Notes: a model not told the origin generated them from the letters alone. 20,012 nt of DNA from Thermovirgaceae bacterium (GCA_046542505.1 JBKHBH010000031.1:1-20012), one strand, 5' to 3'. Shown: positions 1,267-17,071, counted from the first letter of the stretch. A program made the numbers and translations.

Positions 1267-1971
1267 TCAGGGCGCGCCCTCTTCCAGAGCTGCCTCTACA
1301 GCCGCCATGCAATGAAGCTTCATGGTGTCAAAAACAGGGATCCCGGTATATTTCTGCTGTACGAGGAGGGGAATCTCCGTACAGCCCAGGACAATCCCCT
1401 GAGCTCCTTTCTTCGAGAGCTTTTCAATAATCTCAAGGAACCTGTCCCTGGATTCCGGCACAATATTCCCGAAGGTCAGTTCTTCGTCAATGACGTGATT
1501 GATGAATTGCCTGTCTTCCTCATCGGGGATGACGGTCTCGATCCCGTGCATTACCCTGAGACGGGCCCTGTAAAAATCCTCTTCCATGGTGAATTTCGTC
1601 CCTAAAAGCCCCACGGTGTGAAACCCTTTCTCCTGTATCGACGCGGCAGTCGCGTCAACGATGTGCAACAGGGGGATCTTGACCGTACCATCCGCCGCCT
1701 CGGCTATCTTGTGAATCGTGTTGGAACAGATCAGAAGCAGTTCCGCTCCCGCCCTTTCCAGAATATCAGCGGCATCGGATACCTTTTCTCCGATACTCGC
1801 CCACTCGCCTGTGTTCATGTGATGGTCAAACTCCTGGAAATCAAAGCTCCACAGGATGATCTTCGCGGAGTGGGTCCCGCCGAGCTTGCGCGAAACGAGT
1901 TCATTGATGATCCGGTAGTACTCGACGGTGGATTCCCAGGTCAGTCCGCCGATCAGGCCAATGGTTTTCAT
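1267..1971 (-). CDS. Aspartate/glutamate racemase family protein (YgeA/RacX-like)
   Basis: MKTIGLIGGLTWESTVEYYR N-terminus, CSNTIH, LLGTKFTM and LGCTEIP motifs. Confidence 0.92.
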   Translation of the reverse strand: MKTIGLIGGLTWESTVEYYRIINELVSRKLGGTHSAKIILWSFDFQEFDHHMNTGEWASIGEKVSDAADILERAGAELLLICSNTIHKIAEAADGTVKIPLLHIVDATAASIQEKGFHTVGLLGTKFTMEEDFYRARLRVMHGIETVIPDEEDRQFINHVIDEELTFGNIVPESRDRFLEIIEKLSKKGAQGIVLGCTEIPLLVQQKYTGIPVFDTMKLHCMAAVEAALEEGAP

Positions 1972-2025
1972 CTTCCGTCACCGCCTTTCGAAGATTTCTT
2001 GCCCGTACGTCTTTTTTGGAACTCT

Positions 2026-3417
2026 TTATTCTTTCTGCAAGATCGCCCGTGCCGCAACGATTCCGCTTGCCGAAGCCTGTATGACCCCACGCGTCACGCC
2101 TGCTCCGTCACCGCACGCGTAAAGCCCGGGGAGGACCGTCTGGAGATATTCATCCAGAGCGAGCTTGAGACTGTAGAACTTGACTTCAACTCCGTAGAGC
2201 AGCGTGTGCTTTCCGTTGATTCCCGGGATGATGGAATCCAGTGCCTGGATCATCTCCAGGATGTCCACCAGGTGCCTGTAGGGAAGCGCAAAGGACAGGT
2301 CGCCAGGCTCCGCCGTCTTCAGGGTCGGGTGCACGAGCCCCCTCTCGATTCGCCCCGGCGTAGAGCGTCTCCCGTGCTTGAGATCCCCCAGCCTTTGAAC
2401 AAGGACTCCTCCGGAAAGCATGTTCGCCACCCGGGCGATATGACTGCCGTAGCCGTTGGGATCCTTGAAAGGTTCCGTGAACTCCGTGGAAACAAGAATC
2501 GCGAAGTTGGTGTTGTCCGTCTTCCTGTTTCCATCCTTGTTGCTGTGCCCGTTGACGGTCATGATGTCATGGCTCGCGACGAATTCAGTGGTCACCTCAC
2601 CGTGGGGACACATGCAAAAGGTTCGGACGCTGTCATCGAATGTGGGGGTATCCAGGACCGCCTTGACCTCGTAGAACTGGTCCGTCACCGTCTCGGCCCA
2701 TCCTGCGGGAATTTCCACCCTGACGCCGATGTCCACCGGCAGCGACTCGATCTCCAGGCCCAGGGCCTTCACGGTCTGTTCCATCCAGAAGGCGCCCTCC
2801 CTGCCGGGGGCGAGGATCACCCTGGGCGCCGAAAGGGTCCTTCCGTCATCGAGAAGGACTCCGGCGACGGCGTCTCGGGACGTCAGGACCTTTTCCACCG
2901 TCTTGTTCATGATAACGTCACACTGTCCGGAGATTTCTTCGTACATGCTTGACAGAATATCCCGCGAGCGGTCGGTCCCCATGTGGCGGATCGTCGCCGG
3001 AATGAGGCGCAACCCCGCCCCGCTCGCCCTGATGGCAAGATCCCTTGCAAACTGCGGGTCAGGTTCGAAAACATCCCGGCTCGCTCCATGCTCGACGAAG
3101 AGTCCATCAACTTCAGCGATCAAATCAAGCAGCCGCTGCCTGCCGATGTACCTGTTGAGGTTGCCCCCGAACTCCGGCGTGAGGGTCAGCTTGCCGTCAC
3201 TGTAGGCACCCGCCCCGCCCCATCCGCACATGACATTGCAGGGGTTGCAGTGAAGACAGTGGTCGACTTTGCCCTCTTTCAGGGGGCACCTGCGGTTTTT
3301 TATGGCCTTCCCCTTGTCTATGAGGGCGACTTGGAGTCCTCCCTGTATGAGCTCCCGCGCGGCAAAAAGTCCTGCGGGTCCTGCTCCGACGATAACGACA
3401 TCGTATTCAGATCTCAC
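2026..3417 (-). CDS. FAD/NAD(P)-dependent oxidoreductase with an N-terminal Cys cluster (COG2509-type)
   Basis: GAGPAG Rossmann motif, CP-x8-CLHCNPC Cys cluster, GGAGAYSDGKL, VRTFCMCP and GDGAG. Start placed at GTG 3417 behind AAGGGGAG, with TATAAT on the minus strand at 3457-3452. ATG 3447 is an alternative start. Confidence 0.85.
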   Translation of the reverse strand: MRSEYDVVIVGAGPAGLFAARELIQGGLQVALIDKGKAIKNRRCPLKEGKVDHCLHCNPCNVMCGWGGAGAYSDGKLTLTPEFGGNLNRYIGRQRLLDLIAEVDGLFVEHGASRDVFEPDPQFARDLAIRASGAGLRLIPATIRHMGTDRSRDILSSMYEEISGQCDVIMNKTVEKVLTSRDAVAGVLLDDGRTLSAPRVILAPGREGAFWMEQTVKALGLEIESLPVDIGVRVEIPAGWAETVTDQFYEVKAVLDTPTFDDSVRTFCMCPHGEVTTEFVASHDIMTVNGHSNKDGNRKTDNTNFAILVSTEFTEPFKDPNGYGSHIARVANMLSGGVLVQRLGDLKHGRRSTPGRIERGLVHPTLKTAEPGDLSFALPYRHLVDILEMIQALDSIIPGINGKHTLLYGVEVKFYSLKLALDEYLQTVLPGLYACGDGAGVTRGVIQASASGIVAARAILQKE

Positions 3418-3697
3418 GGTGCTCTCCCCTTTTCGGACGAATTTCATCCTTATTATACCTTTCAGCAGCGCCTCCGTTGTCCTTCGGGAGTTAAAGGAAG
3501 TCTCGCGGAGGGTTTGGGAGATATTCCGAGAACTCCCCCCCAAAATCCGGGACATACTTCGCTGAGCTCCTCTAGGCGGACTTTGCCCCGCCTCTCGCCA
3601 TTTGTAAGGGAGGGGTCAAACCTTTAGGGTTTTTACCAGCTTCGGATCTGGTATCAGAGGTGATCCAAAGCACAAAACCAGGAGGTGCACATACGAA

Positions 3698-5203
3698 ATG
3701 AGCGGCTTATTCGGCATATGGGGTGACAATGACGAGGTAACCTTTCATACCATGATGGAGGACCTGCGGCACAGGGGTTCTGACGCCACCGGAAGCGTTA
3801 CAGGCGAAGATTTCAGCATCGGGCATTGCAGGCTCGCCGTCATGGACCCTGAAAATGGTGACCGCCCCTTGTACAACGAAGACGGGAACTTCTCGATTGT
3901 TTCGGATGCACGGATCTACAACTCCCCTGCCCTTCGCGGCGAACTCTCGAAACGCCATGAGTTCAGGACCGGGAACGACAGTGAAGTGATCCTGCATCTG
4001 TTTGAGGAACATGGACCAAAAGCTGTGGAACAGCTTGACGGCATGTTCGCCCTTTGCATCACCGACGGGAATTCACTCTTTCTCGCGCGTGATCCACTTG
4101 GGATCAAGCCTCTCTACTACGGGAAGGATAAAAATGGCGTATTCCACTTTTCATCCGAAATCCAGAGTTTCCCCCACAACGTTGGCGAAATCAGGGAATT
4201 CCCCACAGGAACCTGGTACCACTCGGAACACGGGTTTCACACCTATTATGAAATTCCCGATGTCAAACCCCAACAGGATGCTGATGAAAAAGCCCTTGTC
4301 GGGGAAATCAGGGAAACTCTCGAAAAATCGGTGGAAAAGCACCTGATGAGCGACGTTCCCGTGGGAGTCTTCCTTTCCGGCGGGCTCGACAGCAGCATCA
4401 TCGCAGCCCTGGCGGCCAAAGGCCTTTCTCCCCTGCTCTCCTTCACGACGGGGACACCGGACAGCCATGACCTCAAAGCGGCGAAAGAGATGTCGGAACA
4501 CCTCGGAACGATCCATCATGTCTACGAACTCACCGAAGAGGATATCGCCGACCATCTGCCCATGATCATTTCAAGACTTGAATCCTTCGACCAGGACCTT
4601 GTGCGAACCTCGGTGCCCTGCTATTTCACCTCCATGCTGGCGGCACGCTACGTCAAGGTCATTCTCACCGGTGAAGGCGCCGACGAGCTCTTTGCAGGGT
4701 ATACCTACTACAAGGATATCGACAGGCCGGAAATCCTGGCCCAGGAGCTGCGGGTTTCTCTCGCAGGTCTTCACAACGTGGGGCTGCAGCGCATAGACAG
4801 GATGACCCTGTCCCATTCCCTGGAAGGGCGGTCGCCTTTCCTCGACGGAAAAATGATCGCCCTTGGCCAGCGGATCCCGCCCCAGCTGAAACTGAAAGGG
4901 GATCCGCCCATGGAGAAATGGATACTCCGGAAGGCCTTCGAGGAGGATCTTCCCGAAGGGATCGCCTGGAGAAAGAAGGAACAGTTCGACGAAGGAAGCG
5001 GTGTTATCGGCCTGCTCCAAAAAATCGCCCGAAAGTCTTTCCCGGGAGACTCCTGGAAGAAGTTCCGGGACGACAGGCCCCAGGTTCAGCTGCGATCCGC
5101 GGAGGAATGCTACTATTACAGCATTTTCGAAAAAGTATTCGAGGAACCTGAAACGGTGGCCGACATGGTCGCCCGGTGGAGCAAGCGAAAATTGCCGGCG
5201 TAA
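3698..5203 (+). CDS. Asparagine synthetase B-like ATP-dependent amide synthetase with a degenerate glutaminase domain
   Basis: AGGAGGTG RBS. Ntn-domain motifs HRGxD and RDPLGIKPLYY. Synthetase motifs FLSGGLDSS, GEGADELFAGY, RSPFLD, KWILRKAF and RKKEQF. The N-terminus is MSG, not MCG. Confidence 0.9.
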   Translation: MSGLFGIWGDNDEVTFHTMMEDLRHRGSDATGSVTGEDFSIGHCRLAVMDPENGDRPLYNEDGNFSIVSDARIYNSPALRGELSKRHEFRTGNDSEVILHLFEEHGPKAVEQLDGMFALCITDGNSLFLARDPLGIKPLYYGKDKNGVFHFSSEIQSFPHNVGEIREFPTGTWYHSEHGFHTYYEIPDVKPQQDADEKALVGEIRETLEKSVEKHLMSDVPVGVFLSGGLDSSIIAALAAKGLSPLLSFTTGTPDSHDLKAAKEMSEHLGTIHHVYELTEEDIADHLPMIISRLESFDQDLVRTSVPCYFTSMLAARYVKVILTGEGADELFAGYTYYKDIDRPEILAQELRVSLAGLHNVGLQRIDRMTLSHSLEGRSPFLDGKMIALGQRIPPQLKLKGDPPMEKWILRKAFEEDLPEGIAWRKKEQFDEGSGVIGLLQKIARKSFPGDSWKKFRDDRPQVQLRSAEECYYYSIFEKVFEEPETVADMVARWSKRKLPA

Positions 5204-5260
5204 GAGCATCCCTGTTACACTTCGCAGAAGCGTAGCATTTATGAAATAGAGCGAGTGGTA

Positions 5261-5269
5261 TGTTATAAT
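5261..5269 (+). promoter_or_regulatory. Extended -10 promoter of the osmoprotectant ABC operon leader
   Basis: TGtTATAAT is an exact TGnTATAAT consensus. Confidence 0.7.
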
Positions 5270-5304
5270 ATGAAGCGGCAGGAGTACTCCTGCCGGCTTC
5301 ATAT
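5268..5304. repeat. 37-bp inverted repeat with a perfect 20-bp palindromic core
   Basis: ATATGAAG-CGGCAGGAGTACTCCTGCCG-G-CTTCATAT. The core 5276-5295 is its own reverse complement. Confidence 0.9.
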
Positions 5305-5547
5305 GTCTTTTGCCGCCCCTTGTGCGTGCGCGACATGCATTCAAGAGCGCATAAGAGGACACTTATGGCGCTTCCTTTTCTACCACGAATCAACAACAAT
5401 TCCGCCATCCAGATCCGGATCCTCGCAGGCATACCGGCAGGAAGTGCCAGCCGTTTTTTGTCCTTTCAAGACAGCAGGAACCTCTGTTGTCGAGAATAAC
5501 CGGCTATGGGGCTCTTTTTCATTTCGAAACCAGGGGAGGCGATACCC

Positions 5548-6210
5548 ATCGAAAGCGTCCTGCTTTTTCTCAAATACTATAACGAACGCATTCTCTTCGA
5601 GTTCCTCCAGCACCTCAAGATCATCGCCATCAGCATTCCCGTTTCCATTTTAGTCAGCGTGCCCATCGGTATCTATATCTCGTCACGGCCGCGCATAGCG
5701 AAAACCGTGATCTACATTGCCGGCGTGCTGATGACCGTACCCAGCCTTGCCCTGTTCGGGATCATGGTGGTGGCCTTCGCTCCGTGGGGCATGGGACTGG
5801 GAATGGTCCCGGCGGTTACGGCCATTACCGTATATTCCCTCCTGCCTATAACCCGGAACACCTACACGGCGCTGAACAGCGTAGCTGAAGGCGTGCTCGA
5901 GGCAGCCAAGGGCATGGGCTTGTCGAAGCGGCAAACCCTGTGGAAGATCCGCATCCCTCTTTCCATCCCCGTTGTCATGGCCGGCGTCAGGACCTCGGTC
6001 GTCCTGGGCGTGAGCGTGGCTACCTTCGCCACCCTCGTGGGAGCCGGGGGACTCGGCTTTTTCATCTTTTCAGGCATCAGCAGGTCCAACTTCGCCATGG
6101 TACTCGTCGGGGCCATTCTCGTGTCGGCCCTTGGAATCGGCGTCAACTGGTTTTTCATGAAGCTTGAAGTCTGGCTGACCCCGCGCGGACTCAGAGCGGA
6201 CAGGGAGTGA
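5548..6210 (+). CDS. Osmoprotectant (glycine betaine/choline/carnitine/proline) ABC transporter permease
   Basis: Hydrophobic helices, TVPSLAL, EAAKGMG (EAA loop) and GAGGLG. The start is uncertain: ATG 5506 has no clear RBS, whereas in-frame ATC 5548 lies 8 nt after GGGGAGG. Confidence 0.9.
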   Translation: MESVLLFLKYYNERILFEFLQHLKIIAISIPVSILVSVPIGIYISSRPRIAKTVIYIAGVLMTVPSLALFGIMVVAFAPWGMGLGMVPAVTAITVYSLLPITRNTYTALNSVAEGVLEAAKGMGLSKRQTLWKIRIPLSIPVVMAGVRTSVVLGVSVATFATLVGAGGLGFFIFSGISRSNFAMVLVGAILVSALGIGVNWFFMKLEVWLTPRGLRADRE

Positions 6211-6219
6211 AAAGCGACC

Positions 6220-7335
6220 ATGATTGAATACAAAAACATTACAAAGCGTTTCGGCGAAAAAACAGCCGTCAACGACCTGACGATGACCCTCGAACAAGGC
6301 ACGATTACAATGCTGATAGGCCCATCAGGTTGCGGCAAGACCACATCTCTCAAGATGGTAAACCGCCTCGTCGACCCCGACGGGGGCGATATCCTCATCA
6401 ACGGGGACTCCATCTTCGACCTGGATCCGGTCACGCTGAGACGGGACATCGGCTATGTCATCCAGGAAATCGGCCTTTTCCCCCATTACTCGGTTTTCGA
6501 CAACATCGCAACCCTGCCAAGGCTCCACAAGTGGGACGAGAAAAAGATCAAGGACCGCGTACATGAAGTCCTCAACATGGTCACCCTGGACGAGACCTAC
6601 GCCGACAAGTACCCCAGGCAGCTTTCGGGAGGCGAACGACAGAGGGTCGGTCTTGCCCGGGCCCTCGCGGCGGATCCGGACGTGCTGCTCATGGACGAGC
6701 CTTTCGGGGCCATCGACCCGATCAACAGGCTTGTCCTGCAGCAGTCTTTCCTGGAGATCCAGGAAGAAATCAAAAAGACTATCATCTTTGTCACCCACGA
6801 TATCAACGAAGCCATCAAGTTGGGTGACAAGCTAGCGATCATGAACCAGGGCTCCCTGGTGCAGTTCGACACCGTCTCGGCAATCCTTTCGAACCCGGAA
6901 AACGAATTCGTGGAGAACCTGCTCGGCCAGGACCGGAACCTGAAGGCCCTTTCGTTGAAAAAGGCCAAGGACTACGCCGTCCAGGAAGGATACACCACCA
7001 TCAAGGGTGAAACCGACAAGGAAAAGATCCGGAAGGAACTGGAGGACAAGGACCTGGTTGTGGCCTATATCCTAGACTCCGGGGACCGCCTCAGTGGACG
7101 TTACTACATCGACAAGTCGGCGAAAAAAGTCGAGGACGCTTACCCCATTGTGCGGGAAACGAAACCCTACCGCGTCACGCGGAACACCAGTCTCACCGAA
7201 ACGCTTTCCAGGATGCTGGAGCATGGGGAAAAGAAATTGCCGGTGGTCACCCGTGAAGACCGTTTTACCGGCGTCATCGACCTGGACGCAATCTTCGAGG
7301 AAGTCGAGCAGGCCGGAACGCCGGAGGGGGCGTGA
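6220..7335 (+). CDS. Osmoprotectant ABC transporter ATPase with a C-terminal CBS-like region (OpuBA/OpuCA/OsmV-like)
   Basis: Walker A GPSGCGKT, signature LSGGERQR, Walker B LLMDEPFGAID and switch VTHD. The C-terminal LPVV...FTGVIDL is CBS-like. Confidence 0.95.
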   Translation: MIEYKNITKRFGEKTAVNDLTMTLEQGTITMLIGPSGCGKTTSLKMVNRLVDPDGGDILINGDSIFDLDPVTLRRDIGYVIQEIGLFPHYSVFDNIATLPRLHKWDEKKIKDRVHEVLNMVTLDETYADKYPRQLSGGERQRVGLARALAADPDVLLMDEPFGAIDPINRLVLQQSFLEIQEEIKKTIIFVTHDINEAIKLGDKLAIMNQGSLVQFDTVSAILSNPENEFVENLLGQDRNLKALSLKKAKDYAVQEGYTTIKGETDKEKIRKELEDKDLVVAYILDSGDRLSGRYYIDKSAKKVEDAYPIVRETKPYRVTRNTSLTETLSRMLEHGEKKLPVVTREDRFTGVIDLDAIFEEVEQAGTPEGA

Positions 7336-7339
7336 TAGC

Positions 7340-7978
7340 GTGGCATTCTTTACGTACATAGCAGGAAACACGGACCTGATCATGTCCTCCATCGTGCGGC
7401 ATTTCGTCCTCTTTTTGATTTCCATGGCCTTTGCCGTAACGGTGGGCACAGCCTTGAGCATTGTCATCACCAGGGAGGGGCACGAAAAGATGGGACAGGC
7501 CATCCTCTCCATAACGGGAGCCAGCCAGGCTGTGCCGTCAGTGGCGGTCATCGCCCTGGTTTTTTTGTTTATTGGAATCGGCATGAAACCGGCCATCATC
7601 GCGCTGATCATCTACAGCCTGGTTCCTATCGTCTTCAATGCAACATCAGGGATTTTGAGCGTTGATCCGGGAGTCATCCAGGCGGCCAAGGGCATGGGCC
7701 TGACGAGGACACAGAGGCTCTGGCGGATCAAGATCCCCCTGGCAATGCCCGTGATCATGTCGGGCATCAGGAGCGCCGCGACCATCAACATCGGGACGGT
7801 GACCGTCGCGGCCGTCATCGGAGCCGGCGGACTCGGCGACATCATCTATACGGGACTTAAGCTCAACAGGCCGGAAATGATCCTTATCGGCGCCGGTTTG
7901 TCGGCGATCATCGCCATCCTGGTCGATACGGTCCTGTTCTATGTGGAACAGAAAGTGATACCCAAGGGACTCGCCTAG
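7340..7978 (+). CDS. Osmoprotectant ABC transporter permease (second)
   Basis: GTG start at 7340 after GGAGGGGG, in frame with ORF 7094..7978. Motifs QAVPSVA, QAAKGMG and GAGGLGD. Confidence 0.92.
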   Translation: MAFFTYIAGNTDLIMSSIVRHFVLFLISMAFAVTVGTALSIVITREGHEKMGQAILSITGASQAVPSVAVIALVFLFIGIGMKPAIIALIIYSLVPIVFNATSGILSVDPGVIQAAKGMGLTRTQRLWRIKIPLAMPVIMSGIRSAATINIGTVTVAAVIGAGGLGDIIYTGLKLNRPEMILIGAGLSAIIAILVDTVLFYVEQKVIPKGLA

Positions 7979-8003
7979 AACAAATTTTGAAGGAGGTAGT
8001 GCC

Positions 8004-8894
8004 ATGCGAAAATTTCTGACTGTGCTTCTTGCGGTATGTTTTGTGGCGGTAGCAGCCTGGGGCGCCCTGGCGGCCGGAAAAATCAATGTGGGGGCGAAAA
8101 ACTTTACCGAACAGTACGTCCTCGGCCACATGATGGTCAAGATCCTGGAGGACGCCGGCTATGACGTGGATTCCACCATGGGGACGGGCAGCACAGTGAC
8201 GAGGAAAGCCCTGGAAACGGGACAGATCGACCTGTACCCGGAATACACCGGGACGGCGTGGATGGTCTACCTGAAACATGATTCCGTGCTTACTGACCCT
8301 GAAGAACTTTACCAGAAGGTCAAGGAAGAAGACCTCGAAAAAAACGGTATTGTCTGGCTCAAACCCTCGGAAGTGAACAACACCTACGCCATGGCCATCA
8401 CCGAGGACGCCACGGAAACCATGGGAACGAACCTCAGTGATCTTGCCGACTATGTCAACGAGAACCCGGAAGAAGTCGTTTTCGGGATCAACCAGGAGTT
8501 CTACGAACGCTCCGACGGGTTTTTCGCCATGGCGGAACATTACGGCATGGATGTCAAAAAGAAACAGGTGCGGGCCATGGACACGGGGCTGACCTTCGAA
8601 GCAATGGAGCGAGGGCAGGTGGATGTGACCATGGTCTTCGCCACCGACGGCAAGATCAGGAAATACAATCTCCATGTCCTTGAAGACGACAAACAGTTCT
8701 TCCCCGTCTACTCACTGTCCGTCTGCATCCGCAAGGACATTCTTGACGAAGATCCCGACCTGGAAGAGGTCCTTGCTCCCATGACCGAACTGACTGACGA
8801 AATCATGCAGAAGCTCAACTATCGCGTCGACGTTGAAGGTTTGCCCGAGGAAAAGGTCGCCGAAGAATACCTCAAGGAACAGGGAATCATCTAG
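8004..8894 (+). CDS. Osmoprotectant ABC substrate-binding protein (OpuBC/OsmF-like), copy 1
   Basis: AAGGAGG RBS and a Sec signal. Motifs KNFTEQ, YPEYTGT, NNTYA, EFYERSDG and DDKQFFPVY. Confidence 0.95.
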   Translation: MRKFLTVLLAVCFVAVAAWGALAAGKINVGAKNFTEQYVLGHMMVKILEDAGYDVDSTMGTGSTVTRKALETGQIDLYPEYTGTAWMVYLKHDSVLTDPEELYQKVKEEDLEKNGIVWLKPSEVNNTYAMAITEDATETMGTNLSDLADYVNENPEEVVFGINQEFYERSDGFFAMAEHYGMDVKKKQVRAMDTGLTFEAMERGQVDVTMVFATDGKIRKYNLHVLEDDKQFFPVYSLSVCIRKDILDEDPDLEEVLAPMTELTDEIMQKLNYRVDVEGLPEEKVAEEYLKEQGII

Positions 8895-8912
8895 CCGATA
8901 CGAACCGAAGCA

Positions 8913-9000
8913 AGCAGCGGTGCGTCCATGACAGAGAGGCACCGCTGCTGTTTCTCAAATCGTCCTGAAAGCCCCGCATATCGGGAACCGGGAGCTTTCT
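8913..9000 (+). terminator. Two hairpins between the tandem binding-protein genes (attenuator or mRNA stabiliser)
   Basis: AGCAGCGGTGC (8913-8923) pairs with GCACCGCTGCT (8939-8949) and is followed by GTTTCT. A second stem, GAAAGC-CCCG...CGGG-A-GCTTTC, lies at about 8967-8999. Confidence 0.5.
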
Positions 9001-9029
9001 AAAAACACACCAAATTCAAGGGAGGTCAT

Positions 9030-9920
9030 ATGATGAAGAAACTGCTGATGGTGCTTCTGGCAATATGCATGGTCTCCGCGGCGGGCAGCGCCATGGCCGC
9101 AGACCAGATCAAGGTGGGAGCCAAAAACTTTACCGAACAGTACATTCTCGGCCACATGATTACCAAGCTCCTGGAAGAAGCCGAGTATGACGTGGAAACC
9201 AAGATGGGTACGGGCAGCACCGTGACGAGGAAGGCCCTTGAAACGGGGCAGACGGACCTGTATCCCGAATACACCGGGACGGCGTGGATGCTGTTTTTGA
9301 AGCACGATTCCGTCATTACCGATCCGGACGAACTCTACAGGAAGGTCAGTACAGAGGATCTCGAGAAAAACGGTATTGCCTGGCTCAAACCTTCCGACGT
9401 GAACAATACCTACGCCATGGCCATCACCCAGGAAGCCACCGAGACGATCGGCACCAGCCTCAGTGATCTCGCCGAGTATGTCAACGCAAATCCCGGCGAA
9501 GCGGTCTTCGGCATCGACCAGGAGTTCTACGAACGCTCCGACGGGTTCTTCGCCATGGCAGAACACTACGGCATGAATGTCGACAAGGACCAGGTCCGGA
9601 CCATGGAAGTGGGCCTGACCTTCGAGGCCATGATGAATGACCAGGTGGACGTGACCATGGTTTTCGCCACCGACGGCAAAATCAAGAAATACAATCTCCA
9701 TGTCCTTGAAGACGACAAGCAGTTCTTCCCCGTCTATTCACTTGCCGTCTGCATCCGGAAAGAGACCCTCGACGCCTTTCCGGAAATCGCCGATGTCCTC
9801 GCCCCGATTTCCAAACTGACCGACGAGGTCATGCAGGAGCTCAACTACCGGGTCGACGTTGAAGGGCTCCCGGAAGAAAAGGTGGCGGAAGAGTATCTGA
9901 AGGAAAAAGGGCTTATATAG
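9030..9920 (+). CDS. Osmoprotectant ABC substrate-binding protein (OpuBC/OsmF-like), copy 2
   Basis: AAGGGAGG RBS. Same length (296 aa) and same motifs as copy 1. Confidence 0.95.
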   Translation: MMKKLLMVLLAICMVSAAGSAMAADQIKVGAKNFTEQYILGHMITKLLEEAEYDVETKMGTGSTVTRKALETGQTDLYPEYTGTAWMLFLKHDSVITDPDELYRKVSTEDLEKNGIAWLKPSDVNNTYAMAITQEATETIGTSLSDLAEYVNANPGEAVFGIDQEFYERSDGFFAMAEHYGMNVDKDQVRTMEVGLTFEAMMNDQVDVTMVFATDGKIKKYNLHVLEDDKQFFPVYSLAVCIRKETLDAFPEIADVLAPISKLTDEVMQELNYRVDVEGLPEEKVAEEYLKEKGLI

Positions 9921-10040: not shown

Positions 10041-11048
10041 ATGAGAACTGTCAGGATTCAAAAAACGGGAGGACCGGACTCCCTCATCGCGGAAAGCCTT
10101 CCCGACCCGAAACCGGCACGGGGCGAAGCGCTCGTGAAACTCGAATACTGTGCCGTGAATCACCTGGATATCTGGGTCCGGATGGGGAATGTCCCGATTT
10201 CGCTGCCAAGGATTCCCGGCTCGGAGGGAGTCGGTGTCCTGGAAGCCCTCGGTCCGGAAACGTCCTGGGACGGCGGAACCTCTGTTATCGTCACACCCTG
10301 GATCTATCCCGGCGACCACCGCCATCACCCCATGAACGCCTACGCAGGAGTGCTTGGCGTCGCCAGGGACGGCTGCTACGCGCAAAAAGCCGTCGTCCCC
10401 GTATCATGCCTGCGCCCGCTTCCGAAGGACATGGAAAAGGAAAACGCAGCCGGCCTGACTTTGACTGCCGCGACAGCCTATCACATGGCAATATCCCTGG
10501 CCGGGGTCAAACCTGGAGACCGGGTCTTTATCGCCGGAGCCGCAGGCGGCGTGGGCCTTGCCGCCATCCAGATCTGCCGCGCCACAGGGGCGACAGTTTA
10601 CGCCGCCTCGAGAAGCCCCGAAAAACGGCATCGCCTGAAGGAATGGGGTGCTCATGAAGCCTTCGATACCTCCGGAGCCTACGACAGGGATGTCCGGGAC
10701 GCCACAGGCGGCCTGGGCGTCGATGTCGTACTGGAAACAGTGGGGGAGAAAACCTGGGAAAAGAGCCTCTCCATTCTGAAACCCGGCGGACGCCTGGCTT
10801 TTTGCGGATCCACATCTGGCCCTGAAGTAACAATGAACCTTCAGCGTATCTACAGGAATGAACTGTCCCTGCTTGGTTCCTACGGGGCGACGCAGGTGGA
10901 GACGGACGCCGTGCTGCGCCTCGCCGAAGAGGGGCTCCTCGAAAGCGCCGTTGACTGCACCCTGCCCCTGGAACAAGCCGCCGACGCCCACAAGCTGATG
11001 GAAGAGGCCGGCCACTTCGGCAAGATCCTGCTGTCAATACCGGAATAA
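10041..11048 (+). CDS. Medium-chain dehydrogenase/reductase, NAD(P)H:quinone oxidoreductase-like
   Basis: VNHLD, PRIPGSEGVG, nucleotide-binding GAAGGVG, GVDVVLETVG and C-terminal HFGKILL. No structural-zinc Cys cluster. Confidence 0.88.
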   Translation: MRTVRIQKTGGPDSLIAESLPDPKPARGEALVKLEYCAVNHLDIWVRMGNVPISLPRIPGSEGVGVLEALGPETSWDGGTSVIVTPWIYPGDHRHHPMNAYAGVLGVARDGCYAQKAVVPVSCLRPLPKDMEKENAAGLTLTAATAYHMAISLAGVKPGDRVFIAGAAGGVGLAAIQICRATGATVYAASRSPEKRHRLKEWGAHEAFDTSGAYDRDVRDATGGLGVDVVLETVGEKTWEKSLSILKPGGRLAFCGSTSGPEVTMNLQRIYRNELSLLGSYGATQVETDAVLRLAEEGLLESAVDCTLPLEQAADAHKLMEEAGHFGKILLSIPE

Positions 11049-11064
11049 CAGGTGGAGGTTTTCG

Positions 11065-12168
11065 ATGAAAGAAAAGGGCCGTTACGATGAACGGGACACC
11101 CTGTTTGCGCGAATGGCATGGCGGGAGGGAAGCCCCGCGTGGGAAGATTACTACAGACGCAATCCGGAAAAGAAGGCCACCGATAACGCCCTGCGCAGGA
11201 TGCCGTATCTCGGCGGCCCCGAAACCCCGACATGGAATCCGCTGGCCTCGGCCGTCATCGACGGGGTTTTTCGTCTTCTCGCCGACTGGCACCCCCAGGT
11301 GGACCGTCATCCAGACGGCCCCGGCCTCGACCTCCCTCCAGAAGACCTGCGCCGCTGGGTGACAGGGGCGGCCCTTCACCTTGGAGCCGACCTGGCGGCC
11401 ACGGTTCGCATGAAACCCGAACACTACTACAGCCACAGGGGCAGGAAAGAGGAATTCTACGGCAAACCCGTGGAGGACATGCTGCCCTGGGGCGTGGTTG
11501 TCGCCGTTTCCATGAATCCTGAAATGGTCCACTGCGCTCCCCTGGCCCCACAGACTGCAGAGACCGTCCGCGGGTATCTTCGGGCGGCGGTCCCGTCCCT
11601 CGCCCTGGCCTACGCCATCGAATCCGCCGGGTACAGGGCCCGGGTGCACATGGACGGGAATTATCTCGTCACCGCCACACGGGTGGCCGAAGACGCCGGA
11701 CTGGGCGTCAGGGGACGGCATGGACTCTTGATAACCCGACCGTACGGCCCTTCGGTTCGATTGGGCGTCATCACCACCGACATGCCGTTGACGGCTTCAG
11801 AGTTGGATCCCGCTGCTAAAGCCGTCAGGGCATTTTGCTCCGTCTGCGGGAGGTGTGCCAGTCTCTGCCCAGGAGGAGCCATAGCAGCCGACGGTAAAGA
11901 GGAAGCCTCTTTCATGCCGGAAGCCTGTTACAAAATATGGAGGACACTCGGTACCGACTGCGGCGTCTGCATCAGCGCCTGCCCTTTCACCGAAGGGGCT
12001 GTGGATTGGGATACACTGGAGAGGGCGGAAGACCCTGTCGGTTTTGCCAGACACGCCGTCGCCGGTCTGGGCGACCGGCCCTTCAGGAAAAAACCGCCTG
12101 CCTGGCTTGAGGCCCGCGGTGGAGACATTTCCCTGGAACCTGGGAACAGGCAAAAAAGAACCTCCTGA
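11065..12168 (+). CDS. Reductive dehalogenase-like (RdhA/QueG superfamily) cobalamin and 2x[4Fe-4S] protein
   Basis: RYDERD, HYYSH and AGLGVRGRHGLLITRPYGPSVRLGVITTDMPL, plus the Fe-S motifs FCSVCGRCASLCP and C-x10-CGVCISACP. Confidence 0.8.
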   Translation: MKEKGRYDERDTLFARMAWREGSPAWEDYYRRNPEKKATDNALRRMPYLGGPETPTWNPLASAVIDGVFRLLADWHPQVDRHPDGPGLDLPPEDLRRWVTGAALHLGADLAATVRMKPEHYYSHRGRKEEFYGKPVEDMLPWGVVVAVSMNPEMVHCAPLAPQTAETVRGYLRAAVPSLALAYAIESAGYRARVHMDGNYLVTATRVAEDAGLGVRGRHGLLITRPYGPSVRLGVITTDMPLTASELDPAAKAVRAFCSVCGRCASLCPGGAIAADGKEEASFMPEACYKIWRTLGTDCGVCISACPFTEGAVDWDTLERAEDPVGFARHAVAGLGDRPFRKKPPAWLEARGGDISLEPGNRQKRTS

Positions 12169-12176
12169 CGAAAGGA

Positions 12177-13058
12177 ATGATACCTTTGGCCGAAATCGCA
12201 CCTGAGCTTCGGGAAGCCCTCCTGAAACTTCAAAAAACGGAGATCACGGAATACCGGATTTACATGCGCCTCGCCCGCAAGATGGACGGGGAAAACCGGA
12301 AGGTCCTGGAACGAATCGCCGACGACGAGAAGCGCCACGCCGACACCTGGCGCCGCTACACGAAAACCGAATTGAAACCAAATTCCCTGATGGTCGCTTT
12401 TTACATGTTTTTGGCCTTTCTTTTCGGCATCACCTTCGCCATCAAGATCATGGAACGGGGCGAGGAATCCGCCGAAGAGGCCTATGATTCCATCGGCGAC
12501 GAGATCGCAGAAGCCCGGACGATCATGCACGAGGAAGAGGAACACGAGGAAGCTTTGGTCAATCTCGTCGACGAGGAACGACTCAAGTACATCGGTTCCA
12601 TGGTCCTGGGCCTCAACGACGCCCTGGTGGAACTCACCGGGGCACTGGCGGGTTTCACCTTCGCCATGGCGAACAGCCGCCTCGTGGGCGTGGCGGGACT
12701 CATCACCGGAGTGGCGGCCACTCTCTCCATGGGGGCTTCGGAGTACCTCTCCCAGCGCTCCGACGAAGGGGAGCTCCACCCTCTCAAGGCCGCCGTCTAC
12801 ACTGGTGTGGCCTATCTTGTGACTGTCACCCTTCTTGTAGCACCCTACTTTCTCGTATCCAACGTGTACATGGCGCTTTTGTGGACGCTCTTCGACGCCT
12901 TTTGTGTCATCCTTTTCTTTTCTTTCTTCGTTTCCGTCGTCAAGGATGCGCCCTTCAGGCCGGCCTTCCTGGAAATGGCCTTGATCAGTTTCGGCGTCGC
13001 AGCCGTATCATTCGCCATCGGCCTGATAGCCCGCCGGTTTTTGCCGGTGGATCTTTAG
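12177..13058 (+). CDS. Rubrerythrin/ferritin-like domain fused to a VIT1/CCC1 transporter (MbfA-like iron exporter)
   Basis: Diiron ligand patterns EITEYRIY, DEKRH, ERGE and EEEH. VIT1 motifs GLNDALVE and LSMGASEYLS, with several transmembrane helices. Confidence 0.88.
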   Translation: MIPLAEIAPELREALLKLQKTEITEYRIYMRLARKMDGENRKVLERIADDEKRHADTWRRYTKTELKPNSLMVAFYMFLAFLFGITFAIKIMERGEESAEEAYDSIGDEIAEARTIMHEEEEHEEALVNLVDEERLKYIGSMVLGLNDALVELTGALAGFTFAMANSRLVGVAGLITGVAATLSMGASEYLSQRSDEGELHPLKAAVYTGVAYLVTVTLLVAPYFLVSNVYMALLWTLFDAFCVILFFSFFVSVVKDAPFRPAFLEMALISFGVAAVSFAIGLIARRFLPVDL

Positions 13059-13088
13059 AGACATAACGTTCGAGGAGGTCCATATTTC

Positions 13089-13700
13089 ATGCCCGGATGT
13101 GCCATTTCACCTGAAGTCATCACAGCAGCCCAAAAGTTTCACGGTCACTGGTGCCCCGGCCTGGCGACGGGAATCCGCATCGCCGAAATGGCCCTGCGGG
13201 AAGTCGGTTCGAGCACCGACGAAGAGATCGTTGCCGTCGCCGAATGCGACAATTGCTCCGTCGACGCCGTCCAGTTTCTGACGGGTTGTACCGTGGGGAA
13301 GGGAAACCTGAGGATCGAGAACGTGGGGAAAACGGCCTTCCGCTTCTACAGGCGGAGCGACGGCAAGGCCGTCAGGATCGTCCGGAAACCCCGCCTCAGA
13401 AAACGGGAAGACCCGCAAGAAACCTCCCTCAGGGATAGTTACGCTTCGGGGTCGCTTACACCGGAGGAACACGATGAGTATGCCCGGATGCGCAAAAGGC
13501 AGTGTGATTCGATCATGGCCGCAGAGCTCGATGACCTCCTGGAGTGCAAGGACTGCGGCGTGCCGATGCCGTCCAGGGCCCTCATGACGGACAGCATCGT
13601 CTGCAGCAGGTGCGGCGAGGAGGTCATGGAGACGAAAACTCGCAACTTCAGAGGCTGCGTGCTTTGTGTTCCCTGTTTCGAAAAAGAAGGCGGCCTCTAG
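13089..13700 (+). CDS. FmdE family protein with a C-terminal C4 zinc finger
   Basis: FHGHWCPGLATG, ECDNCSVDAVQFLTGCTVGKGNL and CSRCGE...CVPC. Confidence 0.9.
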   Translation: MPGCAISPEVITAAQKFHGHWCPGLATGIRIAEMALREVGSSTDEEIVAVAECDNCSVDAVQFLTGCTVGKGNLRIENVGKTAFRFYRRSDGKAVRIVRKPRLRKREDPQETSLRDSYASGSLTPEEHDEYARMRKRQCDSIMAAELDDLLECKDCGVPMPSRALMTDSIVCSRCGEEVMETKTRNFRGCVLCVPCFEKEGGL

Positions 13701-13709
13701 ACGGCGACA

Positions 13710-13738
13710 GGGGCGCAGCCTCCAGAGGATTGCGCCCC
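13710..13738. terminator. Hairpin between convergent genes
   Basis: GGGGCGCA (13710-13717) pairs with TGCGCCCC (13731-13738), with an inner CCTC/GAGG stem. No clear U tract. Confidence 0.5.
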
Positions 13739-13790
13739 GAAAGGTCTCGGGCCGTCTGCAGTCAGGAATTTCGTGCCTTTTTCCCTGCCT

Positions 13791-14165: not shown

Positions 14166-14220
14166 GTGGCAACCCCCTTTCGTTCAACGTGCCTTTGTGT
14201 TTTACAATCAGTATAGGAAC

Positions 14221-14241
14221 TCTTCTGACAGTGTCAAAAGA
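14221..14241. promoter_or_regulatory. Palindromic candidate operator between divergent genes
   Basis: TCTTCTGACA-G-TGTCAAAAGA has 9 of 10 arm positions paired. It lies downstream of TACAAT (14203-14208) and abuts the AAAGGAGG RBS. Confidence 0.45.
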
Positions 14242-14254
14242 AAGGAGGCACAAA

Positions 14255-14860: not shown

Positions 14861-14869
14861 AGGATGCAC

Positions 14870-14898: not shown

Positions 14899-14958
14899 TA
14901 GATACGTTCCGCCGCTTCGGAAGAATTTCGCGTGCGGCGGAAAAACAGATACATGACG

Positions 14959-15132
14959 GGAGAAGTCCTTCGGGAAGCCGGTGAAAATCCGGCACAGCCC
15001 CGCTACGGTGAGGATGACGACGCATGCACAAGCCACTGGCCTCAAGAGCCGGGAAGGCGCATGCCGAGGGTGACTCCGAGTCCGGATACCGAGCCTTCTC
15101 CAGGCGCCTTTACCTCCGCGAGGGCCAGGAGG
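14959..15132 (+). ncRNA. Cobalamin riboswitch (long, class I/AdoCbl-type aptamer plus P13)
   Basis: GGGAAGCCGGTGAAAATCCGGCACAGCCCCGCTACGGT, GCCACTG...GGGAAGG and B12 box GAGTCCGGATACC. P1 is GGAGAAG (14959-14965) with CTTCTCC (15095-15101), and P13 is CCTCC/GGAGG (15113-15132). It lies upstream of a TonB-dependent receptor. Confidence 0.93.
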
Positions 15133-15211: not shown

Positions 15212-17071
15212 ATGTTCTGGAAAAAAGGGAAAAAAGCGGTGATACTGGTTTCGGTGCTTGCGGCCGTACTGGCCGCAACGGGAGCATGGGCTGAGGACGT
15301 AGTAGTCCTCGAACCCGAGGTCGTGACTGGCTCGAGGATTTACGCAGACCTTGACGAAATCCCTTCGGCCACGTACGTAATTGACAGGATGGAGATTGAA
15401 AAAAGCGGAGCCAGGGAATTGAACGAAATCCTTGCTGAAATCCCGGGAATCTACACACCTTCACGGAACGCGAAATCCCAGCAGGTGGACGTCAAGATCC
15501 GGGGCCTTGCCACGGAGCTTCTGGTGCTGGTCGATGGTGCACCATACCATACCGGAACATACATTTCCCCTGGAGCAGCAACGGATCTTCGCTCGATTCC
15601 CCTGGAGGAAATCGAGCGGATCGAGATCGTCAAGGGGGCTGGTTCGGCATTGTACGGCTCCATGGCGGCTGCCGGCGTCATTAATATCATCACGAGGCAA
15701 ATGGAAGGTTCAGGAATATCGATCCTGGGCGAAACCGGGACCAACGACTGGAAAAAGGGCTCCATCAGCGGCTGGACGACGGAGGGCGACTTCGGCGTAA
15801 GGGTCTGGTATTCGAAATCCGAAGAAGGGGAAACCCCTTTGTCGGTCTACAACCCTTCAGGAAGGCCTGCATCAGCAAACGACGGCGTCGTTGACAAGAG
15901 CCTCGAGTACGATGAACAATCCACCGGACTGAAACTTCGGAAAGGACCTTTGACATTCGACGCCTCCTGGGGAGAATACGAATCCAGGTGGACATATTGG
16001 CTAGCTCCCAACAGACAGGAAAACACCTTCTCCAGGTTCAACCTGAAATGGGAAGACGGCCGGAACAATTTCATGGTCTATCATCACAAGCATGAAAGGG
16101 ACCAGTGGGACAGTTGGGGGCAATACAATTATGACAACAAGGCCTGGGGTGCGGAATTCTCGCAGAGGACGACTTGGGGGGACTCCCTGGTCTCCTGGGG
16201 AACAGCGTTCCGGAAGGAAGACATCTCTTACGACGAGGGCATCCCGATCAGCCGTGACCGGACGAACTATGCCCCCTTCGTCGAAGTCTCCAGGCCCGTA
16301 GGTGACCTTCTCCTGAATCTGGGACTCCGTTACGAGATCTGGGACCAAAACGACGCCGAGAACTACGAGGAGTTCATCCCCAAGCTGTCGTTGCAGTACC
16401 AGACACTCCAAGGTTCCACCTGGTACCTGTCGGCGGGACGGTTCTTCGCCATGCCTAGTGTGTACCAGCTTTTCGGCAGCCCCGTCTACGGCATCGATCC
16501 AAATTACGACCTCAAGCCGGAAAAGGGGTACAGTTATGAATTCGGAGTCAAGGGCACCGACGAATCAGGCCCCTGGAACGTGGGACTCTTTTACATGACC
16601 ATGGACGACAAGATCCGCTGGAAGGCTACATCACTCTTTGAAAGCCGTTATGAAAACGTCGATGACTATCGGGCCTGGGGAATCGAGGCGACAAAGACAT
16701 GGACTCTCAACGAGCTTTGGGACCTTTCCCTCGGTACCACATGGATGCGCGCCGAAGAAAAGACGGAAACAAGCAGCATCTGGACCAGGTCGACAGTTCC
16801 GGAATGGGATGTGAACGCCACCCTTGCCTACGGCAGGGGGCCATGGGCCGGAGAGGTGACGGTCAAGTATTTCGGAAACCGCAATGAGGGCAACGTGGAA
16901 TCTGACGTAACCACTGTCGACGCGCTGCTGGAATACAAGTTCGATGACTCTACTCTCCGCCTTTCAGTGTACAACCTCTTCGACGAGGAATACTGGCAGA
17001 CGGAAGCAAGCAACACGTATTACCACGGGCCCGAACAACAGATCTACCTCACTTGGGAACATACCTTTTAA
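15212..17071 (+). CDS. btuB: TonB-dependent outer-membrane receptor, probable corrinoid receptor
   Basis: Signal peptide, TonB-box-like EVVTGSR, plug motifs KIRG, VLVDG and IERIEIVKGAGSALYGS, then LKPEKG, NLFDEEY and a C-terminal Phe. The substrate is inferred from the cobalamin riboswitch. Confidence 0.88.
   Translation: MFWKKGKKAVILVSVLAAVLAATGAWAEDVVVLEPEVVTGSRIYADLDEIPSATYVIDRMEIEKSGARELNEILAEIPGIYTPSRNAKSQQVDVKIRGLATELLVLVDGAPYHTGTYISPGAATDLRSIPLEEIERIEIVKGAGSALYGSMAAAGVINIITRQMEGSGISILGETGTNDWKKGSISGWTTEGDFGVRVWYSKSEEGETPLSVYNPSGRPASANDGVVDKSLEYDEQSTGLKLRKGPLTFDASWGEYESRWTYWLAPNRQENTFSRFNLKWEDGRNNFMVYHHKHERDQWDSWGQYNYDNKAWGAEFSQRTTWGDSLVSWGTAFRKEDISYDEGIPISRDRTNYAPFVEVSRPVGDLLLNLGLRYEIWDQNDAENYEEFIPKLSLQYQTLQGSTWYLSAGRFFAMPSVYQLFGSPVYGIDPNYDLKPEKGYSYEFGVKGTDESGPWNVGLFYMTMDDKIRWKATSLFESRYENVDDYRAWGIEATKTWTLNELWDLSLGTTWMRAEEKTETSSIWTRSTVPEWDVNATLAYGRGPWAGEVTVKYFGNRNEGNVESDVTTVDALLEYKFDDSTLRLSVYNLFDEEYWQTEASNTYYHGPEQQIYLTWEHTF

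Follow-up and report, generated by a model that had tools for sequence, protein, structure and literature searches.

A naturally cysteine-less AsnB-type enzyme with a putatively disabled glutaminase site beside a betaine-type importer in a Thermovirgaceae bacterium

Asparagine synthetases of the AsnB type (EC 6.3.5.4), represented by Escherichia coli AsnB (1CT9) and human ASNS (6GQ3), combine an N-terminal glutaminase domain of class II, the N-terminal nucleophile (Ntn) type, with a C-terminal synthetase domain that carries the pyrophosphatase loop (PP-loop) and a catalytic lysine. According to the available text of the two papers concerned, the glutamine pocket lies within 5 Å of a conserved C-domain residue, Glu-414 (PMC6748925), and a network of Asn-74, Glu-76, Glu-414 and Arg-142 is found at the mouth of the ammonia tunnel (PMC11615228). 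The enzyme AS-B can use ammonia or glutamine, as stated in the available part of PMC3854871. In E. coli PurF the exchange of the nucleophilic cysteine for alanine or serine leaves no detectable glutamine activity and ammonia still serves, and AsnB loses function when its equivalent cysteine is replaced (PMC3261824, available text). The window analysed here, a stretch of 20,012 nucleotides from a Thermovirgaceae bacterium (GCA_046542505.1, JBKHBH010000031.1:1-20012), holds at 3698..5203 on the plus strand a gene for an AsnB-type enzyme that differs from these well-described proteins: serine has taken the place of the catalytic cysteine, a number of fixed substitutions appear to have disabled the glutaminase site, the adenylation site has been preserved, and the genes that follow encode an OpuC-type importer of the kind that handles betaines.

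The open reading frame is full length and encodes 501 amino acids (P0001), opening with MSGLFGIWG and stopping after codon 501. It is preceded by the Shine-Dalgarno sequence AGGAGG (3680..3685, 12 nt upstream of the ATG at 3698), the GGAGG of which is kept in the five genomes of the genus and in the sister genus (G088), in agreement with the first-pass annotation, which had described an intact frame with a strong ribosome-binding site. The glutaminase-like N-domain (residues 2-195, 3701..4282, plus strand) is recognised by Pfam as GATase_7/GATase_6 (GATase_7 8.1e-36) and is predicted to be folded and catalytically disabled, and the synthetase domain (residues 196-501, 4283..5200, plus strand) matches Asn_synthase at 2e-68. 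The protein scores 534.7 bits with the NCBIfam AsnB equivalog NF006949 (cut-off 499) and 385.2 bits with TIGR01536 (cut-off 267.1). Its best solved relative is E. coli AsnB (1ct9, phmmer E 2.6e-93), than which it is about 50 residues shorter. An AF2 model (pLDDT 94.2, pTM 0.93, with the N-domain at pLDDT 88-98 per 10-residue block) also superimposes best on 1ct9, with a TM score of 0.90, a root-mean-square deviation of 2.5 Å and 36% identity in the structural alignment; the TM scores are 0.84-0.88 for human ASNS and 0.71-0.75 for TsnB9, beta-lactam synthetase and the carbapenam synthetase CarA. The fold, the PP-loop with its lysine and the family score are thus those of an AsnB (EC 6.3.5.4), and the cysteine nucleophile and the glutamine pocket with its oxyanion hole are not. 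Databases name such proteins 'asparagine synthase (glutamine-hydrolysing)', and glutamine hydrolysis is not to be expected of them.

Beta-lactam synthetase, CarA and the lasso-peptide cyclases are adenylating enzymes of the AsnB family that also lack a working glutaminase, and the first-pass annotation had likened the window protein to them. This likeness is not supported: the AsnB cut-off is passed, the TM score is 0.90 with AsnB as against 0.71-0.75, and the beta-aspartyl-AMP residues, apart from the Asp384 equivalent, appear to be retained. As individual candidates, beta-lactam synthetase and CarA were rejected on phmmer E-values of 1.7e-19 and 1.2e-15 (2.6e-93 for AsnB), a lasso-peptide cyclase on 150.3 bits with NF033535 (cut-off 525), and an N-acetylglutaminylglutamine amide (NAGGN) amidotransferase on 228.2 bits with TIGR03104 (cut-off 570.1). 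No clavam, carbapenem, lasso-precursor or ngg genes were found among the window ORFs scanned with family profiles.

The substitutions in the glutaminase domain fall on residues that would have been expected to handle glutamine. Codon 2 is AGC (3701..3703), a serine where the Cys-1 nucleophile is expected; Arg56-Pro57 (CGC-CCC, 3863..3868) replaces Gln-Pro, the glutamine being E. coli Gln60 and the proline corresponding to the cis-proline noted in the human and E. coli structures; and Asp70-Ala71-Arg72 (3905..3913), which opens the motif DARIYN (GAT GCA CGG ATC TAC AAC, 3905..3922), stands in place of E. coli Asn74-Gly75-Glu76, the residues of the oxyanion hole and of glutamine amide recognition. 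Two ligands of the glutamine backbone are retained, namely Arg45 (3830..3832; E. coli Arg49, human Arg-48, which binds the alpha-carboxylate) and Asp94 (3977..3979; E. coli Asp98, human Asp-96). In the synthetase domain the motif LSGGLDSS (4373..4396), with the PP-loop SGGLDS, the ATP pyrophosphatase motif, at 4376..4393, is followed by TGEGADE (4667..4687), PFLD (within 4823..4846) and WRKKEQF (4967..4987, RKKEQF at 4970..4987), the catalytic Lys427 of which corresponds by motif position to human Lys-466. Equivalents of E. coli Glu348, Asp351, Glu352 and Arg387 are present, the last as Arg365 (4790..4792). Within the same domain Gly362 (4781..4783) replaces the asparagine of close relatives or the aspartate of E. 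coli (Asp384) and human (Asp-400) enzymes, Ser379 (4832..4834) replaces a valine (E. coli Val401), Thr251 corresponds to E. coli Val272, Ile366 occupies the site of a tunnel residue (E. coli Ala388, human Ala-404), and the arginine at position 353 (E. coli Arg375) has been lost from a position that is now variable. All of these features lie on the plus strand.

The generality of the changes was assessed by comparing 11 distinct sequences of the clade to which the window protein belongs with 114 canonical relatives, including that of the sister genus, at columns in which at least 90% of the canonical sequences agree. Of such columns, 10 of 81 in the N-domain and 17 of 155 in the C-domain are altered in the clade. 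Ser2, Arg56, Ala71, Arg72, Gly362 and Ser379 are found in all 11 sequences, with aspartate (eight) or glutamate (three) at position 70, while the asparagine and glutamate of the NGE motif are 100% conserved in the 114 canonical rows. The clade retains the PP-loop, Arg303, Glu326, Asp329, Glu330, Arg365, Glu376 and Lys427. With human positions mapped by hand from HMMER alignments (index = published number + 1), a mapping that is itself inferred, all the reported beta-aspartyl-AMP residues (human Glu-364, Asp-367, Glu-368, Asp-400 and Arg-403) appear to be kept except Asp-400, here Gly362; models of human ASNS place this position in the pocket that holds the amino group of the substrate. The alignments therefore support a glutaminase site that is disabled by several fixed substitutions next to an adenylation site that is kept, as had been proposed at the outset. 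Rechecking of the coordinates bore out the earlier placing of Ser2, Arg-Pro and DARIYN and the earlier reading of HRGSD and the synthetase motifs. Two of the earlier statements need narrowing: HRGSD is indeed present (3770..3784, plus strand) but is private to the window genome, its clade relatives reading HRGPD or, in one case, HRGLD; and the ATP and adenylation motifs are intact as described, but the domain that holds them is altered at the 17 columns given above.

The changes mark a conserved clade. Among the 120 best database matches, P0001 to P0007 (79-100% identity, all 501 amino acids) read MS[GA]LFG...DRP...[DE]ARIYN, and the other 113 comprise 110 that begin with MCG (two after a short N-terminal extension) and three that are truncated at the N-terminus. 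AsnB-like genes occur in 10 of 151 Synergistales genomes, the serine type in the window genus (G000, G029, G057, G092 and G104). The gene of the sister genus is 63% identical and reads MCG...DNP...ANGEIYN; the genus and G088 share one gene order, FAD-dependent protein (minus strand), AsnB, permease and ATPase, and the serine-type gene is therefore the positional orthologue of the cysteine-type gene. Ratios of non-synonymous to synonymous substitution (dN/dS), calculated by NG86 with saturated pairs (dS above 2) not relied upon, are 0.07-0.20 within the clade for residues 2-195 and 0.04-0.09 for residues 196-501; for the N- and C-domain, respectively, they are 0.136 and 0.094 between G000 and G092, 0.198 and 0.062 between G057 and G104, and 0.069 and 0.079 between G000 and G057. 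The codons of the new residues vary synonymously from genome to genome, as AGC/AGT for Ser2, CGC/CGT for Arg56, GCA/GCG for Ala71, CGG/AGG for Arg72, GGG/GGC for Gly362 and TCG/TCA/TCT for Ser379, and the new residues themselves are therefore under selection. Thus the changes define a conserved clade under purifying selection and are neither an error nor decay. The first-pass annotation had argued from the number of substitutions that they are no sequencing error, and 11 distinct sequences with dN/dS of 0.04-0.20 bear it out; its suggestion that MSG/DARIYN might define a clade also holds, in that MS[GA]/[DE]ARIYN marks a clade of the window genus that is monophyletic in the trees of both domains. 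It had further named relaxed selection on a lone copy, with close homologues all keeping Cys and NGE, as a finding that would tell against it: dN/dS is low in both domains, and the close homologues within the genus also lack Cys and NGE.

How often the cysteine has been lost can be judged from a wider sampling of the family. The best 150 matches among 50%-identity representatives were aligned with P0001 and P0008, and 71 of the 152 rows carry Cys plus NGE. A FastTree phylogeny of 147 rows (representatives of 440-560 amino acids, a sample of close relatives and the clade) was built with the trait columns left out. A residue is present at position 2 in 142 of these rows, as cysteine in 84 and as another residue in 58 (36 Ser, 8 Ala, 7 Gly and others). 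The tree implies at least 14 changes between the cysteine and non-cysteine states and contains 15 maximal non-cysteine clades, one of them large (36 tips), numbers that must be read in the knowledge that some odd N-termini may be wrong start calls and that errors of FastTree can inflate the number of state changes. The window clade (seven tips in this set) is sister to G088 and P0008 with support 100, a placement that is fully supported in the trees of the two domains as well, and is nested among sequences of the Cys/NGE/Arg-Asp/Arg-Asn-Val type, from which it follows that it lost its cysteine independently of the large cysteine-less clade. The two groups have features in common nonetheless: the window protein matches the cysteine-less group at positions 2, 70 and 362 and in its importer neighbour but does not descend from the large clade, and the likeness is, as far as the trees tell, convergent.

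The convergence reaches beyond the nucleophile. Position 70 is not asparagine in 53 of 57 non-cysteine rows and is asparagine in 81 of 84 cysteine rows. In 10 independent, well-supported pairs this position changed the same way in 6 and the opposite way in none, position 362 in 6.5 versus 0.3 and position 379 in 6.5 versus 0.4 (median p ~0.03 each); the tally for position 72 is 5 versus 0.1 (p ~0.06), and positions 56 and 353 are not significant. The canonical residue has been lost at 2, 56, 70, 72 and 371 in both the large clade and the window clade, and of the 47 C-domain columns with at least 90% conservation among cysteine-type rows both cysteine-less groups keep 36, among them the PP-loop, Glu326, Asp329, Glu330, Arg365 and Lys427. 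For the positions of Asp384 and Val401, where changes recur, the loss or re-routing of the ammonia path is the best explanation. The locus amounts to a young and clean natural experiment: the sister genus still carries a cysteine-type orthologue with the same gene neighbours, so that the changes that came after the loss of the cysteine can be read directly. That they match the changes in much older cysteine-less lineages points to a set of residues coupling the glutaminase site, the tunnel and the adenylate site, in E. coli Asn74, Glu76, Asp384 and Val401. A cysteine-less form is the only AsnB form in Brevibacterium yomogidense and in an Atribacterota metagenome-assembled genome. In Flavobacterium pectinovorum DSM 6368 (L112) a cysteine-type AsnB (1501-3165, 945 bits with NF006949) is followed after 246 bp by a cysteine-less paralogue (3415-4986, 686 bits) that reads MSG...HDGEIYN.

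The AsnB-type gene is followed on the same strand by an OpuC-type ABC importer (5506..9920), identified from Pfam and NCBIfam profiles and from synteny, which consists of a permease (5506..6210), an ATPase with a CBS domain (6220..7335), a second permease (ending at 7978) and two OsmF/OpuAC-type binding proteins in tandem (8004..8894 and 9030..9920). The two binding proteins are about 77% identical to each other, judging from their cross-matches; G057 also has two, and the complete genome G029 has one in the stretch fetched. The pairing of importer and AsnB-type gene is conserved in the genus and in G088. Between the two lies a gap of 300 nt (5204-5505), which may be a regulatory leader of the importer; it contains a promoter-like site with a TG-extended -10 element (ATGAAA-17-TATAAT, 5241..5269, plus strand, a consensus match only), a perfect hairpin at about 5272-5300 and a run of T near 5455. 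Rfam recognised no family at the 5' region of the gene or in this gap, and an E-value search of 3400-5600 returned one chance-level microRNA match.

The same association recurs elsewhere. We classed 166 fetched loci by their best tblastn reference into 64 of the window's type, encoding proteins of about 500 amino acids, and 102 of the E. coli type. Genes for a betaine-type transporter, an MttB system or a long methyltransferase stand in the flanks of 15 of the 64 and of none of the 102, and within the former the split is 10 of 19 for cysteine-less, 5 of 38 for cysteine-type and 0 of 7 for loci with an unknown N-terminus (Fisher p 0.003 and 2e-7), a census in which relatedness is uncontrolled, the flanks are mostly 1.5 kb and differ in length, and six loci were chosen by hand. 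In the Atribacterota genome (L215), genes for a MarR protein, permease, ATPase, permease, OpuAC and a cysteine-less AsnB-type protein follow one another on one strand, with transporter proteins 56-67% and AsnB-type proteins 33% identical to those of the window. A Nitriliruptoraceae metagenome-assembled genome (L216) has the same order on the same strand, and in Brevibacterium yomogidense (L214) an importer and a cysteine-less AsnB unit are adjacent and convergent; no other enzyme is shared across the longer flanks of these three loci. All four cysteine-less metagenome loci that begin with MAGIAGI (L144, L159, L173 and L190) lie in operons for MttB, corrinoid proteins and pterin methyltransferases. 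In the cyanobacterial locus L208 a single strand encodes AsnB, a long methyltransferase, an ABC ATPase and a protein in which permease and OpuAC are fused, and L207 encodes AsnB and the methyltransferase; this S-adenosylmethionine-dependent methyltransferase of about 416 amino acids is common to L144 (16611-17870) and L208 (5340-6590) at 38% identity (E 1e-97). The flanks fetched for two further cyanobacterial loci (L209 and L210) and two from other Synergistales (L211 and L212), all of the ~500-amino-acid type, contain no transporter or methyltransferase, and no window-like OpuC neighbours were found by blastp (1e-15) at the 80 metagenome loci retained from a scan, which are mostly of the E. 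coli type (33-49% identity) and do not include the relatives at 53-57%. Searches of the literature, with subscription journals outside their coverage, found no paper that joins MttB and asparagine synthetase.

The explanation that we favour, tentatively and at a little below an even chance, is that the window protein is an ammonia-dependent amide synthetase of the AsnB type that acts on an aspartate-like substrate, that its glutaminase domain persists as a structural pseudo-domain, and that it works together with the adjacent importer. Removal of the initiator methionine would leave an N-terminal serine instead of cysteine, the asparagine of the oxyanion hole is now aspartate or glutamate, and the glutamate that reads the glutamine amide is now arginine; we propose that for these reasons glutamine is no longer hydrolysed and probably no longer bound. 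Salt bridges formed by Asp/Glu70, Arg72 and Arg56, with partners such as the conserved Glu376 between the domains, would probably seal both the pocket and the ammonia tunnel at its mouth. The invariance of the new residues, the interchange of aspartate and glutamate at position 70 and the nearness of Glu376 in homologous structures suggest such a salt-bridged, closed pocket and not random decay. A report by Sheng from 1993 is said, by its title, to describe the inhibition by glutamine of the ammonia-dependent activity of Cys-1 mutants, in which case the exclusion of glutamine would be an advantage once the cysteine is lost, and selection would act against glutamine binding. Ammonia-dependent activities have reportedly also been described, judging from titles cited in PMC6342913, for Cys-1 mutants of human ASNS. 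The PP-loop domain would still adenylate the side-chain carboxylate of the aspartate-like substrate, and free ammonia, entering without the help of a glutaminase, would attack the acyl-adenylate; Gly362 may aid its entry, and the tunnel is probably altered at Ile366 and Ser379. This would yield asparagine, or an amide of the asparagine type. The enzyme may act in vivo as a unit with the OpuC-type importer, a pairing that recurs in unrelated phyla. Free ammonia seems the most economical reading of the nitrogen source.

The genome itself provides a setting for this explanation. It is 93.5% complete and contains no other Asn_synthase gene, only two weak PP-loop matches; AsnA was not found in it or in any of the 151 genomes of the order. 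AsnRS, GatB and glutamine synthetase are present. Its GlmS (MCGIVGY) and a PurF-like protein (MCGVFGAF) have kept their cysteines, which shows that glutamine is in use as a nitrogen donor and that the loss is specific to the AsnB-type enzyme. Several observations weigh against the explanation, however. The argument that a sole asparagine synthetase must be a housekeeping enzyme is weakened by its relatives: in the order, 67 of the 151 genomes have AsnRS and 10 an AsnB-like gene, and among the 18 other genomes of the family these numbers are 14 and 5, so that relatives manage without any asparagine synthetase, and the enzyme is not obviously essential. The ~500-amino-acid subfamily likewise has a patchy distribution, with members in 10 of the 151 Synergistales and 4 of the 301 cyanobacterial genomes searched, and looks accessory. 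The pocket residues are invariant, and Arg45 and Asp94 are kept, which would fit a pocket that binds another ligand. The C-domain has been accelerated too, its distance from the shared node to the tips being 0.507 in the clade versus 0.241 in the sister, and Gly362 lies in the amino-group pocket, so that the acceptor may differ from plain aspartate. Lastly, it is not obvious why a simple ammonia-dependent asparagine synthetase should be coupled time and again to betaine importers and to MttB operons.

It is on these last points that a different role becomes conceivable, in which the protein is a new amide ligase tied to the importer, with a betaine-type compound brought in by the OpuC-type system as its acceptor or amine. 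Such a compound might be an aspartate-like solute with N-methyl groups; amidation of its additional carboxylate would yield a compatible solute without net charge, and Gly362, which is compatible with this reading and with the favoured one, would enlarge the alpha-amino pocket. The first-pass annotation had raised an organic amine or a non-aspartate acceptor, and the gene context, on which it had not drawn, strengthens that suggestion. We regard such a role as possible but rather doubtful. The recurrent neighbourhood (10 of 19 cysteine-less loci against none of the 102) speaks for it, as do the operon-like units of importer and AsnB-type gene in Atribacterota and Nitriliruptoraceae with no other enzyme in common, the MttB context of all four MAGIAGI loci, the methyltransferase shared between an MttB operon and a cyanobacterial cassette, the substitution in the amino-group pocket with the acceleration of the C-domain, and the pairing with OpuC-type importers in four lineages, which plain asparagine supply leaves unexplained. 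The DNA of the stretch was found only in sequencing runs labelled microbial mat or hypersaline lake, from two studies, one of which may be the source sample, and this too is in keeping with an osmolyte; among the runs listed, no RNA dataset contained it. Against a new acceptor or amine stand the apparent retention of every reported beta-aspartyl-AMP residue except the Asp384 equivalent, the passing of the AsnB equivalog cut-off, and the 300-nt gap with its promoter-like site between gene and transporter. The cysteine-type orthologue of G088 adjoins the same transporter, and the importer pairing is therefore independent of the loss of the cysteine. Moreover, the window's own genome has no MttB (PF06253, 0 matches) and no tblastn match to the long methyltransferase at 1e-3, so that the MttB and methyltransferase leads are not directly applicable to this organism; and we know of no amidated N-methylated aspartate-like solute of this kind. 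A corrinoid methyl-transfer system does occur in this MttB-less Synergistales genome, on contig C62 at ~13500-18850 (L213), where an MtmB-family protein (PF05369), a B12-binding corrinoid protein, a URO-D-type methyltransferase and RACo are encoded together.

The pairing of the subfamily with betaine importers, MttB operons and the long methyltransferase nevertheless suggests an uncharacterised pathway for an amide-bearing osmolyte or quaternary amine. Taken to its full extent, and at this point the proposal is speculative and unlikely in its entirety, an OpuC-type importer and a cysteine-less AsnB-type enzyme would make up a minimal module of two parts that has come together several times, in Synergistota, Atribacterota and Actinomycetota. 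From hypersaline mats the module would take up a betaine resembling aspartate, or a quaternary compound that bears an amine, and ATP-dependent amidation would turn it into a compatible solute that carries an amide and no net charge. The same molecule would be made by the cyanobacterial AsnB-methyltransferase-OpuA cassettes and demethylated by the MttB operons, and the loss of Cys1 with glycine at the Asp384 position would be an adaptation that lets an N-methylated substrate or an external amine reach the adenylate.

An improbable alternative to the ammonia-dependent synthetase retains a function for the N-domain, with Ser2 as a working Ntn nucleophile and a remodelled pocket that hydrolyses glutamine, another amide or a gamma-glutamyl donor and still feeds the tunnel. 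Serine is the commonest replacement (36 of 58 non-cysteine rows), the clade shows no variation at Ser2, Arg56, Ala71 and Arg72 and has retained Arg45 and Asp94, the N-domain is under purifying selection, and AsnB relatives with other nitrogen donors are known from the Protein Data Bank, such as the hydroxyamidotransferase TsnB9 (7ylz). However, an aspartate or glutamate at the oxyanion-hole position should repel the oxyanion, and their interchange at position 70 points to a role of charge and not to a precise catalytic geometry. Alanine, glycine and other residues are also found at position 2, and the older cysteine-less clade has mostly lost the arginine and aspartate that bind the backbone, which indicates that the pocket degenerates with time. 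The Cys-to-Ser exchange abolishes glutamine use in E. coli PurF, and AsnB loses function as well, in the available text of PMC3261824. Still less credible is the view that the copy no longer catalyses a reaction, as a pseudoenzyme, or is decaying towards loss. The catalytic nucleophile is gone and 141 of the 151 genomes of the order searched lack AsnB altogether, but the frame is full length in five genomes of the genus with its ribosome-binding site kept, the PP-loop and catalytic residues are intact and the model is confident; with dN/dS of 0.04-0.20 in both domains and the synonymous variation of codons, this reading is largely refuted. A sequencing or assembly error at codon 2 would take a single base change (TGC to AGC), but this or a wrong start is refuted almost beyond doubt by the 11 distinct sequences from several assemblies that share Ser2 and the other changes, by the use of both AGC and AGT, by the AGGAGG before the ATG, by the lack of an in-frame start upstream in this genome, and by the position of the nearest cysteine, which lies four codons upstream in the ribosome-binding region and does not align with the CG[IL] motif.

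The remainder of the window bears less directly on the enzyme. Divergent from the AsnB-type gene, on the minus strand, lies a gene for a COG2509-like FAD-dependent protein (2026..3555), and the two are conserved together in the genus and in G088. An Asp/Glu racemase gene (1267..1971, minus strand), considered as a partner of the enzyme and set aside, adjoins the FAD-protein gene here and in G092; no copy was found in the 19.9 kb retrieved from the complete genome G029. Downstream of the importer, a run of genes with a redox and corrinoid flavour (10041-14860, plus strand), most conserved in G057, encodes a zinc-type dehydrogenase, a reductive-dehalogenase/QueG-like Fe-S protein (11065-12168), a rubrerythrin-VIT1 fusion, an FmdE protein with a zinc finger and a nitroreductase-family protein. 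The sole match of an Rfam gathering search is a cobalamin riboswitch (RF00174, 90.7 bits, 14946..15113, plus strand) directly upstream of a gene for a TonB-dependent receptor (15212..17071, plus strand) whose best NCBIfam match, below the cut-off, is the vitamin B12 receptor family.

Set beside the systems known to date, the window enzyme has its two-domain fold, PP-loop and catalytic lysine in common with E. coli AsnB and human ASNS and is set apart from the former by its remodelled glutaminase and tunnel residues, by membership of a patchy, accessory subfamily, and by a betaine-importer neighbourhood seen at none of the 102 E. coli-type loci. It also has features in common with the large cysteine-less clade, with whose members it is only 33-45% identical. 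These proteins, 36 tips of 50%-identity representatives, have Ser, Ala or Gly at position 2, Asp in place of Asn74 and Gly or Ala in place of Asp384, and where AsnB has Glu76 they most often have Arg (11 of 36); they keep the synthetase residues and are often set in MttB operons or partnered with betaine importers. Unlike the window clade, with its Arg45 and Asp94, they mostly lack the backbone-binding Arg and Asp, and ten members score 376-476 bits with NF006949, below the cut-off that the window protein exceeds, and bear generic names only. Laboratory Cys-1 mutants (C1A and C1S in AsnB, human ASNS and PurF) have the loss of the nucleophile in common with the window enzyme, in which the loss is natural and fixed and comes with changes at the tunnel exit and with further pocket changes that should abolish glutamine binding. 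Our searches of the literature, which did not extend to subscription journals, found no description of a natural cysteine-less AsnB. A class II amidotransferase homologue without its N-terminal cysteine does exist in nature in PurF' of Crenarchaeota, which the available text of PMC3261824 gives as proposed to be ammonia-dependent; it belongs to a different family and is a paralogue beside a cysteine-type copy, whereas the window gene is the only AsnB-type gene of its genome. Overall, judged from its sequence and that of its relatives, the window protein is a natural, convergent, glutaminase-dead AsnB within an uncharacterised betaine-linked subfamily, and its closest parallel is the cysteine-less PurF'.

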